A DNA stretch of 24,000 nt. Source: Saprospiraceae bacterium. GTDB lineage: Bacteria; Bacteroidota; Bacteroidia; Chitinophagales; Saprospiraceae. Shown piece after piece: positions 5,952 to 9,024 of the stretch. The notes under the pieces were generated by a model that did no database searches, was not told the origin of the DNA, and saw only the letters and a list, made by a program, of their open reading frames with translations. How positions within the stretch are numbered: the stretch's first letter is position 1; every line of letters starts with the position of its first letter. The stretch spans positions 1 to 24,000 of the forward strand of contig JANQLV010000045.1 of NCBI GenBank assembly GCA_028280415.1. The letters run 5' to 3'. Position numbers and translations under genes: made by a program.

Positions 5952-6176
5952 ATGGCAAACACAACAGTCAATGAGCAAATTACAGATGCGATCACCCAAA
6001 CCAATGTAAAAGTTGTTGCAGAATCTCCTGCACAAGCGATGGGTACCCTTTATCAAATCGCAATGCAAGCCAACGGTATGTCGATGCAAAATGCCGTTTC
6101 CAACCAGCAAAATTTGAATCAACTCAATCCATCTATTGTCGCTCAGGCAATTTCAATTATTACTGGTGCTAAATAA
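5952..6176 (+). CDS. rebB: RebB / 'killing trait' family R-body subunit-like protein (short 74 aa form)
   Basis: 'VNEQITDAITQTNVKVVAESPAQAMGTLYQIAMQANGMSMQNAVSNQQNLNQLN' matches the conserved RebB-family N-terminal signature (xQITDxVTQTNxxVxxxxPAxAMGxLYQ ... QNAVxxQQxxN). It has no Cys and no signal peptide. It is the first gene of a same-strand cluster. Confidence 0.85.
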   Translation: MANTTVNEQITDAITQTNVKVVAESPAQAMGTLYQIAMQANGMSMQNAVSNQQNLNQLNPSIVAQAISIITGAK

Positions 6177-6209
6177 AAGCCATCTTAATTACTATTCAAG
6201 CTAGTTATT

Positions 6210-6593
6210 ATGAATACAGATCAAAACACCTCTTCTACAAGTAACCTTCCGGCAATTTCACCCGGTTTAGCTCAGGTTCAGGAAGCTGTACAATTTACGA
6301 ATGAACAGGTATTGCAACCCGATGTAAAGCCGATGGGAGCTACCGCTAAAGTAGTTGCGGATCAAGCCGCCGCGATGATGCTACAGGATGTTCGCAGCTA
6401 TTTACAGAGCAATGAGCAGGTTTTAACTATAGCGACCGCTAAAGCCATAGCTATGATCATGAGTCAGAACCCTCAGGAACAACAAGCCGGAACCAAAGCT
6501 CTGGAGGCTATTGCTCAGGTACAAACCAGTCTACCCGTTTTTGCCAGCGCTATTACCACTACCGCAGTTGAAATTACCACAAGTTTCAATTAG
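6210..6593 (+). CDS. Hypothetical Ala/Gln/Thr-rich 127 aa protein in the Reb-like cluster, possibly a very divergent Reb-like protein
   Basis: The ORF starts 33 bp after the previous gene on the same strand. Its composition resembles the Reb paralogs, and the local stretch 'AKVVADQAAAMML' resembles 'VKVVAEAPAMALG'. I recognise no other domain. Confidence 0.65.
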   Translation: MNTDQNTSSTSNLPAISPGLAQVQEAVQFTNEQVLQPDVKPMGATAKVVADQAAAMMLQDVRSYLQSNEQVLTIATAKAIAMIMSQNPQEQQAGTKALEAIAQVQTSLPVFASAITTTAVEITTSFN

Positions 6594-6633
6594 TCAACAT
6601 TCATCTGTTTGCGGCTATTAAAAAAACAAAAAA

Positions 6634-7614
6634 ATGAACTCCAAAAAACAAAGAAACAATATGAAGTCTTTCAGCAATACTTTCAAACCAGCCATTCTAT
6701 TTGGTACTCCAACGCTTGATCAACTCAGTAATCAAATATTTGTAAAGGAAAACAAAGAGGCTTTTGACAAAAACAACCATCAATTAACTTATAGCAACCT
6801 GCCCTATGATACGATCCCGGATGTTCCTGATGCAATGTCCGTTTATACCCTGGAGACTTCGAAATTAGGTGTTCGACCTAATATACGTTGCGTAAGCGTT
6901 CGTGGAAAAAAAGAATATACTCATTCGTATTTATTTGAGGCAGAGACCAATGATCGCGGTTTGGCAGTCATCATGTTAAAAGAAAACAATGCCGATAATC
7001 AAATCTATTGTAATGTTCGAATTTTGCCTTATTCTACCTTGACTCAGGTTTTAGTAAATACAAGTGGCGAGCAAATGGAGATAAACATTCCCAAATCAAA
7101 CATCGTCAAGTTAAATGTAACGCTCAAGCCTTCTACAACCGGAGAAGTTTTATATCGTACACATAAGACAGAAGTAGATTTACAAAATACCTCAGAGGCA
7201 GAAGCAGATCAAATCCGGCAAAACCTGGAGTTAAACGGAGCAAAATATGTTGCTTACTATGCGAGCATGATTACTACTCCCCAAGCCAATCCCAATGAAG
7301 GAAAAACGGGCCTGAGCCAAGCTTATTCTCTTGCTTTGGGTGATCCTGCTGATTTTATAAAAAAGTTGCTTCTATTTCTTTCTATGGCCAGTACATTAAC
7401 CGCATTGAGTATTGCAAGCGTGCGATATGGTCAATACAGAAATGATCTAAATAATGATGTCGCTCCGGAGAATGTTCGTGCATTTACTCCGGGCTGGACC
7501 TTTGCCATTGCCTTTTTTGCCGCACTCGGCGGCCTACTCCGTGGAGGGGCAGGCTTAATAGGTGCATTTCAAGGTGGCAGAAATAATAACAACAACGATA
7601 ATAATCAACATTAA
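6634..7614 (+). CDS. Hypothetical 326 aa protein with two C-terminal transmembrane helices and a poly-Asn tail
   Basis: Long ORF in the cluster, 40 bp from the previous gene, with no N-terminal signal peptide. Hydrophobic segments 'LLLFLSMASTLTALSIASV' and 'WTFAIAFFAALGGLLRGGAGLIGAF' lie at roughly nt 7366-7569. The C-terminus is 'GGRNNNNNDNNQH'. No recognisable family. Confidence 0.75.
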   Translation: MNSKKQRNNMKSFSNTFKPAILFGTPTLDQLSNQIFVKENKEAFDKNNHQLTYSNLPYDTIPDVPDAMSVYTLETSKLGVRPNIRCVSVRGKKEYTHSYLFEAETNDRGLAVIMLKENNADNQIYCNVRILPYSTLTQVLVNTSGEQMEINIPKSNIVKLNVTLKPSTTGEVLYRTHKTEVDLQNTSEAEADQIRQNLELNGAKYVAYYASMITTPQANPNEGKTGLSQAYSLALGDPADFIKKLLLFLSMASTLTALSIASVRYGQYRNDLNNDVAPENVRAFTPGWTFAIAFFAALGGLLRGGAGLIGAFQGGRNNNNNDNNQH

Positions 7615-7638
7615 CAAGTCCAATTAAAAACCGGAAAT

Positions 7639-8016
7639 ATGTCATCACTCAAATCATGCCCTCATTGCGGGCACAGTCTAAGTCTGGAGCAAGTTCAACA
7701 TTCCGATTCATCTGAGATCACCGATATTGAAGTCCTGGAACCTGATCAGGAACAGCAATTGGTCAAAACCATCAGTAAAAAAGTAGTAGGGGAAGTCATG
7801 AATACCATTCACCCCTTATTGGAAAAACTCCGCGAACTGGCAGCCGGTCAACAACAGGTTCAAACGCCAATAAATAAAATGAACAATCAGTATAACACTG
7901 AAGAGCAATTAAAAAAAATACAAGAAACTGCGCGTGAACGTGCTAAGGCACAAGAGCAAAAAATTGCAATCAGATTAAGAAAATTACAAAGCAGAGTATC
8001 GAAGCATTTAAGATAA
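7639..8016 (+). CDS. Hypothetical 125 aa protein: N-terminal CPHCGH knuckle plus a Gln/Lys/Glu-rich predicted coiled-coil with a basic C-terminus
   Basis: The ORF starts 24 bp after the previous gene. The N-terminus is 'MSSLKSCPHCGHSLSLEQVQH' and the C-terminal half is 'EEQLKKIQETARERAKAQEQKIAIRLRKLQSRVSKHLR'. No recognised family. Confidence 0.68.
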   Translation: MSSLKSCPHCGHSLSLEQVQHSDSSEITDIEVLEPDQEQQLVKTISKKVVGEVMNTIHPLLEKLRELAAGQQQVQTPINKMNNQYNTEEQLKKIQETARERAKAQEQKIAIRLRKLQSRVSKHLR

Positions 8017-8023
8017 TCCATCA

Positions 8024-8037
8024 TTCACCCGGAGATT
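8024..8037 (+). promoter_or_regulatory. Conserved leader motif TTCACCC-GGAGATT, 60 nt upstream of the Reb paralog at 8084
   Basis: The same motif recurs at 8694-8709, 61 nt upstream of the paralog at 8755. The flanks also match ('taa[tc]cca' after the upstream stop, and 'aaaacaatt' just before the ATG). Confidence 0.35.
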
Positions 8038-8083
8038 CCCTCCAGCCCCTTTATGGAGGTAATTCCAATAAACCAAAACAATT

Positions 8084-8353
8084 ATGTCAGATATAGTAAA
8101 TCCACAAATCACCGATGCCGTAACACAAACCAATGTGCAAGTCATTGCTAATGCCCCGGCTATTGCGATGGGTAATGTTTACCAAAGCGCTGCCCATTCC
8201 ACCGGCTTAATGTTTGAAAATGCAGTAGCAGCTCAGAATCAGCAAAACATCCTTTCACAAGCAGCGACCACCCAGGGGGTTATCCAAATTTATAGCCTCG
8301 ACACTATAGCCAATGCCATTGCCATTGTTCGGATGTTACAAGCCTCTGCTTAA
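8084..8353 (+). CDS. rebB: RebB / 'killing trait' family R-body subunit-like protein (89 aa)
   Basis: 'NPQITDAVTQTNVQVIANAPAIAMGNVYQSAAHSTGLMFENAVAAQNQQN...QAATTQGVIQIYSLDT' is the RebB-family signature. By my manual alignment it is 63/89 identical to the ORF at 8755. Confidence 0.9.
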   Translation: MSDIVNPQITDAVTQTNVQVIANAPAIAMGNVYQSAAHSTGLMFENAVAAQNQQNILSQAATTQGVIQIYSLDTIANAIAIVRMLQASA

Positions 8354-8405
8354 TGCATAAATCAAGATAAATATCCTTTTTTAATCATAAACTCCTTAAA
8401 TAATC

Positions 8406-8678
8406 ATGGCAAAACAAGAATTAAATCAAATAACGGATGCGGTTACTCAAACCAATGTAAAAGTTGTTGCCGAAGCACCAGCTATAGGACTTGCTAATGT
8501 TTTTCAAACTACCGCCCATTCTTCCGGACTGATGTTTAGCAATGCGGTCAACAGTCAGCATCAACAATTCATTAACTCAAATGCGGCTACGACGAAAGGG
8601 CTTATGCAGATACTGAATAAAAATCCAATTACTACGCTTGAAAATCGTTTAGCAGAAATATTGGCACAAAATATTTAA
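8406..8678 (+). CDS. rebB: RebB / 'killing trait' family R-body subunit-like protein (90 aa, divergent C-terminus)
   Basis: 'LNQITDAVTQTNVKVVAEAPAIGLANVFQTTAHSSGLMFSNAVNSQHQQ...AATTKGLMQIL'. The C-terminal 'NKNPITTLENRLAEILAQNI' differs from the 'IYSxDTIxxAIAI' tail of its neighbours. Confidence 0.87.
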   Translation: MAKQELNQITDAVTQTNVKVVAEAPAIGLANVFQTTAHSSGLMFSNAVNSQHQQFINSNAATTKGLMQILNKNPITTLENRLAEILAQNI

Positions 8679-8693
8679 CCCAATTGATATTTT

Positions 8694-8709
8694 TTCACCC
8701 CAGGAGATT
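8694..8709 (+). promoter_or_regulatory. Second copy of the conserved leader motif (TTCACCCCAGGAGATT), 61 nt upstream of the Reb paralog at 8755
   Basis: See 8024-8037. The motif is shared only by the two most similar paralogs. It is absent upstream of the genes at 5952 and 8406. Confidence 0.35.
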
Positions 8710-8754
8710 GATGATACATCATAATATATCCAGTCTCTGTAAAAACAATTTATT

Positions 8755-9024
8755 ATGTCAACAGTAGTAAATCAACAAGTAACTGATGCAGTTACGCAAT
8801 CAAATGTAAAAGTAGTTGCCGAAGCACCGGCTATGGCTCTTGGTAATGTTTATCAATCCGCCGCGCACTCTACGGGTATCATGTTTGAAAACTCAGTAAA
8901 TTCACAAAACCAAATGAATGCGACTTCTCAGGCTGCTACTACACAAGGAATAATGCAAATCTATAGCTTCGACACCATTTCCGATGCTATAGCGATTTCC
9001 CAGATGTTACAGGCTGCTACCTAA
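8755..9024 (+). CDS. rebB: RebB / 'killing trait' family R-body subunit-like protein (89 aa)
   Basis: 'NQQVTDAVTQSNVKVVAEAPAMALGNVYQSAAHSTGIMFENSVNSQNQMN...QAATTQGIMQIYSFDT'. This is the last gene of the cluster. Confidence 0.9.
   Translation: MSTVVNQQVTDAVTQSNVKVVAEAPAMALGNVYQSAAHSTGIMFENSVNSQNQMNATSQAATTQGIMQIYSFDTISDAIAISQMLQAAT

Follow-up and report, generated by a model that had tools for sequence, protein, structure and literature searches.

R-bodies rank with the largest protein actuators known, and engineered pH-driven pistons are being developed from them. Two synteny patterns of reb loci serve as the nearest points of comparison here: the Group 2 pattern has the accessory genes HP2.1, HP2.2 (~205-220 amino acids, aa), HP2.3 and HP2.4, and the Group 1 pattern has HP1.1 (~360 aa), HP1.2 (~110-120 aa) and the distant Rebs HP1.3 and HP1.4 (Raymann et al. 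2013). RebD has been described as a minor component and RebC as an assembly factor that is not incorporated (bioRxiv 10.64898/2026.05.21.725848), RebC being reported as unique to Caedibacter (PMC3583457). RapA, a group-S4 protein, purifies together with the R-bodies of Pseudomonas (PMC8322103, PMC13430693), and R-body expression is stochastic and driven by dedicated regulators (PMC8322103). In Bacteroidota, the first reb homologs to be reported were those of Kordia algicida, in 2010, with confirmation in 2013 (PMC3583457). A survey from 2026 includes Bacteroidota, Flavobacteriales and Chryseobacterium indologenes among its entries, assigns the Rebs of Flavobacteriales to groups 2 and 3, and explicitly leaves aside non-homologous neighbor genes (PMC13430693). 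Here we compare these systems with a reb cassette from a Saprospiraceae bacterium (Bacteroidota), found at positions 5952-9024 of a 24,000-nucleotide stretch (GenBank assembly GCA_028280415.1, contig JANQLV010000045.1, positions 1 to 24,000, forward strand), which is called the window below.

Four Reb paralogs and the proteins p127, p326 and p125 are encoded in this one cluster, which, judging from sequence comparison, is likely to produce R-body-type Reb polymers. An earlier note, made from the DNA sequence alone, had described seven open reading frames (ORFs) on one strand at 5952-9024 with gaps of 24-76 bp, and these coordinates were reproduced, the individual gaps being 33, 40, 24, 67, 52 and 76 bp on the plus strand. 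The three larger ORFs, which had been called interleaved with the small ones, in fact sit as one block between Reb1 and Reb2. The operon-like spacing, ending in a terminator-type hairpin, agrees with the single transcription unit that had been proposed. The features discussed are as follows.

5725-5951, plus strand: presumed promoter region of the reb operon, a 227-bp gap after a fatty-acid desaturase gene
5952-6176, plus strand: Reb1, RebB-family, 74 aa, short leading Reb
6210-6593, plus strand: p127, 127 aa, all-helical, probable remote Reb-like protein
6634-7614, plus strand: p326, 326 aa, orphan cassette-specific protein
7639-8016, plus strand: p125, 125 aa, cassette-specific protein with an N-terminal CPHCG knuckle
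8084-8353, plus strand: Reb2, RebB-family, 89 aa, major-type subunit ('group 2'-like)
8406-8678, plus strand: Reb3, RebB-family paralog, 90 aa, divergent C-terminus
8755-9024, plus strand: Reb4, RebB-family, 89 aa, major-type subunit
9071-9166, no strand assigned: two hairpins, presumed bidirectional terminator between the convergent reb operon and regulator gene
9201-9938, minus strand: response regulator of NarL/LuxR type (REC plus GerE helix-turn-helix, by Pfam), convergent with Reb4

The four RebB-family proteins

Membership of the RebB / 'Killing trait' family was assessed with the Pfam hidden Markov model PF11747, whose gathering score is 24 bits. Reb1 (79.1 bits, E 2.6e-22), Reb2 (96.7 bits, E 8.1e-28), Reb3 (79.4 bits, E 2.1e-22) and Reb4 (99.6 bits, E 1e-28) all match over profile positions 1-63 or 1-67 of 68, and with E-values of this size chance is ruled out as the source of the matches. 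The RebB-family assignment of the four small ORFs in the earlier note, for which it had named this Pfam model as the check, is thus borne out by scores of 79-100 bits, far over the cut-off of 24. A common motif, QITD...NV.V[VI]A..PA..[ML][GA]..[YF]Q...N[AS]V..Q, can be read from the four translations, and at the DNA level the four genes form a direct-repeat family with 61-74% identity over 147 nt.

The traits given as diagnostic of Rebs are a length of ~70-115 aa, an alpha-helical structure, few Cys and aromatic residues, low charge, and the motifs QITD, KxxxD/E, NAV and QQ(Q) (PMC13430693). By their translations, Reb1-4 agree with the family in size, composition and motifs: they are 74-90 aa long, contain no Cys, as the earlier note had seen, and no Trp either, have a combined Gln and Asn share of 20-26% in each protein, and have 1-5 Lys plus Arg residues. 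The QITD motif is kept, with a QVTD variant in Reb4. The KxxxE motif appears as KVVAE in Reb1, Reb3 and Reb4 and the corresponding stretch of Reb2 reads QVIAN; the NAV motif is kept as well (NSV in Reb4), and QQ is found in Reb1-3 and QNQ in Reb4. The N-termini are polar by eye, and by that judgement alone a signal peptide is not apparent. Searched by sequence, the PDB holds no solved structure for any Reb relative.

The four proteins differ in their closest relatives. Reb1 is 67-79% identical to the leading gene in every related cassette, and its best outgroups are the first Rebs of Group-2 loci (Ruegeria 59%, Burkholderia 58.5%); it is the leading Reb, of the 'group 3' type, and probably a minor or assembly subunit. 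Reb2 has orthologs in Kordia, Chryseobacterium, Thalassomonas and a gammaproteobacterial metagenome-assembled genome (MAG), with which it shares 70-77% identity, and it shares 68% with a Ruegeria pomeroyi major Reb. Reb4 shares 72% identity with Reb2 and 73-77% with its own orthologs. Reb3 reaches at most 57-66% identity to other Rebs and is missing the IYSLDT tail. Compared with RebA and RebB of Caedibacter, the Rebs of the window show 49-51% identity.

Reb1 and Reb2 also match the PHROG family phrog_32040, which has no assigned function (E 2e-18 and 4e-23). A tblastn search with Reb4 against INPHARED (50,697 deposited phage genomes) gave no match, and phrog_32040 may derive from a mis-called prophage region.

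Accessory proteins and comparison with described reb systems

The protein p127 matches no Pfam or NCBIfam family. Its own family comprises ~100 clusters, with members in Chryseobacterium, Kordia, Aureispira, Salibacteraceae and Thalassomonas, and one member carries the UniRef name 'Killing trait domain-containing'. In profile-profile alignment with hhalign, p127 is colinear with the Reb domain over 68 columns (E 0.0035 with shallow and 8.9e-4 with deep profiles), and it aligns over 52 columns with the RapA-position protein of Group 2 (Ruegeria hp270 and Burkholderia hp209; probability 49%, E 1.8e-4). Its strongest link is to HP1.2 of Group 1 (Azospirillum hp116; probability 69-90%, E 1.6e-6 to 4e-5), a protein that itself starts with a Reb-like VNAQIIDVINQT motif and matches Reb with an E of 4e-4. 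The AlphaFold2 (AF2) model of p127 is made up of three helices, with a break at residues 36-42 that contains a Pro; this agrees with the layout of helix, proline kink and helix described for Rebs (PMC13430693). Since these individually weak links all agree, p127 can probably be counted as a 'secondary Reb', remotely Reb-like and placed at the RapA position, and the earlier view of it as a non-Reb partner is probably not right.

The largest protein of the cassette, p326, belongs to no Pfam, NCBIfam, PHROG or PADLOC family, and a Pfam scan of 43 members of its own family was also empty. A profile search of the PDB found no sequence relative, tblastn against plasmids and a profile search against IMG/VR gave no match, and the 'DUF4365' label that two family members carry in UniRef was not reproduced by Pfam. 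The family has ~110 clusters, nearly all of them from Chryseobacterium, and in each locus read p326 is flanked by p127 and p125. The public gene call (P0001) gives a protein of 317 aa starting at M10 (6661); the start at 6634 is favored over it because the longer N-terminus has aligned counterparts in the homologs P0002 and P0005 (MNSKKQRNN vs MSSKKQKNN). In the AF2 model (predicted local distance difference test, pLDDT, 73, with a core of ~90; predicted template modeling score, pTM, 0.71), an N-terminal antiparallel sheet lies on a long helix (188-213), and two long helices come after it at the C-terminal end. The hydrophobic segments have their maxima at residues 245-263 (Kyte-Doolittle hydropathy, KD, 1.95) and 291-309 (KD 1.7).

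We regard it as conceivable, if rather doubtful, that p326 is an effector or toxin, or a membrane tether, delivered or pulled by the ribbon, with p125 as its chaperone or adaptor. It is the sole large non-helical protein of the cassette, the toxin of R-bodies is still unknown (PMC3583457), and in the subfamily of the window the two C-terminal helices are strongly hydrophobic (KD 1.87-2.41). In most Chryseobacterium homologs, however, the hydrophobicity is weaker and a Glu is conserved there. The best fold matches, START / Bet v 1 helix-grip lipid-binding domains (E 0.02), would suit such a role but are non-significant, with template modeling (TM) scores of 0.2-0.39; moreover, p326 shows no enzymatic motif and no family match, and Kordia has a cassette without it.

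For p125, no curated family was found, and every match to Pfam or NCBIfam lies below threshold. Matches to zinc-ribbon, IS66, Lar, DndD and SbcC models were rejected as far sub-threshold and as reflecting the CxxC motif or coiled-coil composition. The protein has 42 representatives among 1.84 billion proteins, with conserved C7 and C10 (the CPHCG knuckle), a conserved P59-L64 motif, a conserved helix, and a basic, coiled-coil-like helix at the C-terminus. It follows p326 in all loci read that have p326. By these searches p326 and p125 are orphan families restricted to this cassette. Of the three partners that the earlier note took as non-Reb and functionally undescribed, these two are so far undescribed, and p127 is probably Reb-like.

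Group 2 (Pseudomonas aeruginosa PA14, rcgA-fecI2-...-rapA-...-rebP1P2; the Ruegeria pomeroyi megaplasmid; Burkholderia) shares the layout of the window, i.e., a leading short Reb, a RapA-position protein, accessories and tandem major Rebs, with leading Rebs 58-59% identical to Reb1 and the Ruegeria major Reb 68% identical to Reb2. Several differences stand beside this likeness. The sigma factor (HP2.3) and the cyclic-nucleotide-binding regulator of Crp/Fnr type (HP2.4) found in Ruegeria and Burkholderia are absent from the 24-kb window, which has a NarL/LuxR response regulator instead, joined by a kinase in Chryseobacterium and Kordia. In the middle of the cassette, the unrelated p326 and p125 take the place of the Group-2 accessory genes; neither shows similarity to the Group-2 proteins hp463, hp207, hp100, hp148 and hp216 (E > 0.1). 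The Group-2 ORFs compared with p127, p326 and p125 received their HP2.x names by position alone. The RapA-position proteins of Group 2 are 209-270 aa long, and p127 is much shorter.

Group 1 (an Azospirillum brasilense plasmid, Eleftheria terrae, Vibrio/Alteromonadales) has in HP1.2 the protein closest to p127, and in both systems a short Reb stands beside a Reb-like accessory protein. HP1.2 is the only part of Group 1's synteny pattern with a similar protein in the window: HP1.1 (Azospirillum hp359 and Eleftheria hp355, ~355-360 aa) shows no relationship with p326 (E 0.87), the HP1.3-type long Reb is missing, and Group 1 places its Rebs first and its accessories last. Across the Group-1 and Group-2 loci examined, no accessory protein is a counterpart of p326 or p125 (E > 0.08). 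Because the Group-2 regulators are absent, the middle genes differ and the Group-1-defining HP1.1 is absent, the cassette is, on sequence comparison, a distinct Bacteroidota/marine-gammaproteobacterial variant that stands closest to Group 2.

The type-51 locus of Caedibacter taeniospiralis (rebA-D, pKAP plasmids) likewise clusters several RebB paralogs and combines major Rebs, a minor Reb and a helper that is not a Reb. It differs in being carried on a plasmid in an endosymbiont, the window locus being chromosomal and not from an endosymbiont, and in its accessory proteins. The 95-aa ORF after rebD on pKAP298, which was taken as a putative RebC, shows no similarity to p127, p326 or p125 (E 0.08-0.47), in keeping with the earlier remark that the partner proteins do not resemble RebC. 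The locus of Kordia algicida and Kordia sp. consists of Reb72, a 186-aa p127-like protein, small ORFs, Reb91, and the same convergent REC plus GerE regulator (51%) with a kinase. It differs from the window in lacking p326 and in having a single major Reb, so that in Kordia sp. (L028 6763-10026) the cassette appears in reduced form.

These comparisons bear on a further explanation, in which the Reb paralogs form a non-classical polymer, such as a static filament, sheet or inclusion with a structural, storage or stress role, to which p326 and p125 adapt it. An accessory set unlike both synteny groups and two-component control in place of a sigma factor and Crp would fit such a polymer, as would the finding from type-51 knock-outs that roll formation and pH actuation need an assembly pathway and not just Rebs (bioRxiv 10.64898/2026.05.21.725848). 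Nevertheless, we consider it improbable: the major Rebs share 59-77% identity with Rebs from proteobacterial clusters whose type has R-body producers among its members, and every signature motif is retained.

Regulation, distribution and chromosomal setting

The gene convergent with Reb4 encodes a response regulator with clear Pfam matches (Response_reg E 6.6e-19, GerE E 2.3e-17). The product is 245 aa long, with the Asp of the acceptor motif at D77. Its acidic pocket (VDDD) and acceptor motif (ILLDLRM) are intact, as in regulators of the NarL/FixJ (LuxR-type) kind, and its best NCBIfam models are MctR, MadR and NarL, all under their equivalog cut-offs. In those Bacteroidota loci whose flanking sequence is long enough, a REC plus GerE regulator is convergent with the last Reb. 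Over its full length the window's copy shares 51-63% identity with those that hold this convergent position in L003, L005, Chryseobacterium L009 and Kordia L028, a conservation that exceeds that of p326. It is the conserved eighth gene of the Bacteroidota cassette and presumed to be its regulator, which extends the seven-gene unit of the earlier note to eight. A histidine kinase adjoins the regulator in Chryseobacterium (L009 14183-14932) and Kordia (L028 9253-10026); because no kinase neighbors it in the window, the regulator there is an orphan. A hybrid HisKA-HATPase-REC kinase is encoded at 22560-23972 (minus strand), 12.6 kb from the regulator.

Between the two convergent units lies an inverted repeat with perfect 15-nt arms (9127-9141 and 9144-9158), which folds at -23.3 kcal/mol with a z-score of -7.0 against shuffled sequences, confirming the strong hairpin reported earlier after the last gene. 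A second, imperfect hairpin is found at 9071-9116, and the whole 9071-9166 region has a z-score of -5.3. Strong hairpins of unrelated sequence, with U-tracts, hold the same position in L003, L005, L009 and L011, i.e., in every locus examined. The 15-nt palindrome was also considered as an operator for the LuxR-type regulator; its half-site occurs in 10 copies in the window vs 6.5 expected, none of them near the promoter. Since unrelated hairpins occupy this position elsewhere and the half-site does not recur beyond chance, the hairpins are read as a terminator rather than an operator. At the other end of the operon, the canonical Bacteroidota -7 box TAnnTTTG is absent from 5725-5951, where there is one near match (CATCTTTG at 5907-5914), and sigma-70-like matches show no excess over shuffled sequence.

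A search with p326 at first yielded six relatives, whose contigs have the same gene order, and a scan of species-representative genomes identified 15 loci, in one Bacteroidota MAG, Aureispira, two Gammaproteobacteria MAGs and 11 Chryseobacterium. The synteny survey that the earlier note had proposed thus returned the same order in 15 loci and further contigs. The architecture of the 15 is uniform: a short Reb (71-92 aa), a p127-family protein (124-181 aa), a p326-family protein (270-340 aa), a p125-family protein (109-147 aa), and then one to five Rebs (85-91 aa). All ORFs of the related cassettes are intact. Major Rebs are 70-77% identical across both phyla, and the accessory proteins have conserved cores with 30-46% identity across orders. 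Thalassomonas viridans (L029 4702-10165) has the full structural set; in place of the response regulator there is, upstream, a factor of the sigma-70 family together with an AraC regulator. On these gene orders, regulators are swapped between lineages and the structural core is retained. The distribution is patchy, and different genomes have different flanks.

Some loci contain further small or unusual ORFs. The Chryseobacterium cassettes have two extra small ORFs, which in L009 are at 9657-9845 (62 aa, in the p127-p326 interval) and 11122-11349 (75 aa, after p125); the 75-aa ORF resembles a degenerate Reb (AHSTGAMQINSALNQQRNN), with a weak Reb match in L014 (E 7.6e-4). At L003 2821-3612, a 263-aa RebB-domain protein, about three times the usual Reb length, stands among the tandem Rebs.

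The genes that flank the cassette in the window encode TrkA, TrkH, endonuclease I, a fatty-acid desaturase, a DEAD-box helicase, a ZIP transporter, PAP2, GlmM, an aminotransferase and DapB. The phosphoglucosamine mutase (17791-19248, plus strand) scores 509 bits with the 'archaeal-type' GlmM model TIGR03990 (Arch_GlmM), over its cut-off, and 196 bits vs a cut-off of 448 with the bacterial glmM model. An 843-aa right-handed beta-helix protein (13755-16286, plus strand) with a choice-of-anchor Q domain ends in a type IX secretion system (T9SS) type A sorting domain that scores 22.9 bits, just under the cut-off of 23. Housekeeping genes, Arch_GlmM and a beta-helix protein with a borderline T9SS tail fit a Bacteroidota chromosome, and the Bacteroidota-type context seen earlier is sustained by them. 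The cassette has a GC content of 0.38-0.41, the same as its neighborhood and with no break, and the flanks within the window contain no integrase or transposase. Rfam and tRNA scans of the window gave no matches. A 484-aa protein at 11907-13361 (minus strand) is without a Pfam domain and has a weak full-length match to the BT2802 ribose-utilisation family (65 bits vs a cut-off of 550).

An identical cassette sequence is also present in assembly GCA_028279105.1. Carriage of the cassette by a mobile element or phage was rejected after searches of plasmids, IMG/VR and INPHARED without matches. The earlier description of the locus as resident rather than acquired stands for the recent past; over a longer span, the patchy distribution, the variable flanks and the sharing with Gammaproteobacteria at 70-77% Reb identity speak against it. 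Another reading is that the cassette arrived by horizontal transfer and is carried by this organism as a transcriptionally silent passenger that at present does nothing. The patchiness and varying flanks would be expected of such a passenger, and so would a regulator left without the kinase neighbor that it has in Chryseobacterium and Kordia, and the absence of a recognizable promoter. We nevertheless think this very unlikely, as all eight ORFs are intact and the accessory cores are 30-46% identical across orders, the GC content is like that of the flanks with no mobile-element genes nearby, and the same sequence occurs in independent assemblies.

Proposed function and significance

If the locus makes R-body-type polymers, as we consider likely, its working might be pictured as follows. 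A phosphorylated NarL/LuxR-type regulator would switch expression on, probably in part of the population, by analogy with other R-body producers; transcription would start upstream of Reb1, cover the seven genes and end at the hairpins at 9071-9166. Reb2 and Reb4, possibly with the divergent Reb3, would then polymerise into a rolled cytoplasmic ribbon, with Reb1 (group-3 / RebD-like) as a minor or nucleating component and p127 associating with the ribbon, and p326 and p125 could serve as cassette-specific assembly factors, tethers or cargo. As in Caedibacter and Pseudomonas aeruginosa, ingestion by a eukaryotic grazer and the acidification that follows may unroll the ribbon, which would rupture the cell and the phagosome and free the cell contents. 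These component roles have precedents elsewhere in RebD, RebC, RapA and dedicated regulators. Our confidence in any specific role for p326 or p125 is much lower than that in the polymer itself.

A number of points weigh against assigning an R-body function to the locus. The sigma factor and Crp/Fnr-type regulator that define Group 2 are absent from the window, there is no identifiable promoter for the reb operon, no histidine kinase lies next to the regulator, and the window's own hairpin is without a U-tract. The roles suggested for p127, p326 and p125 are taken from position and weak profile similarity, and since Kordia has no p326, that protein may be non-essential. Finally, our literature search, which was incomplete, found no experimental R-body from any Bacteroidota.

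The same incomplete search returned no account of p326, p125 or the linked regulator. The novelty that the earlier note claimed for an R-body in this phylum accordingly holds at the experimental level, and not for the reb genes themselves, which have already been catalogued there (PMC3583457, PMC13430693). What is new here, and so far undescribed, are the orphan p326 and p125 families and the linked response regulator, or two-component control. The most far-reaching interpretation is that p326 and p125 form an unrecognised R-body accessory module of Bacteroidota and a few marine Gammaproteobacteria, in which p326 would be a hydrophobically anchored protein with a helix-grip-like domain that either ties the ribbon to the membrane, causing its rupture on extension, or is the long-sought cargo or toxin, and the cassette would be under two-component control. 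We put this forward tentatively and think it unlikely as a whole. If the combination of accessory module and two-component control were true, no R-body system regulated by a signal, and none in Bacteroidota, would precede it, and it would extend to genetically tractable genera and to genera that kill nematodes or algae.

The determinants of R-body loading, anchoring and toxicity are, to our knowledge, still unknown. The cassette offers a compact, conserved candidate set, namely two orphan proteins associated only with Rebs, a Reb-like protein in the place of RapA, and a response regulator dedicated to the cassette as a possible switch. As the cassette is present in cultivable Chryseobacterium, the predictions made from it are directly testable. 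The picture of where reb genes occur would be unchanged, because genomic surveys already cover Bacteroidota; a positive result would carry experimentally proven R-bodies past Proteobacteria.

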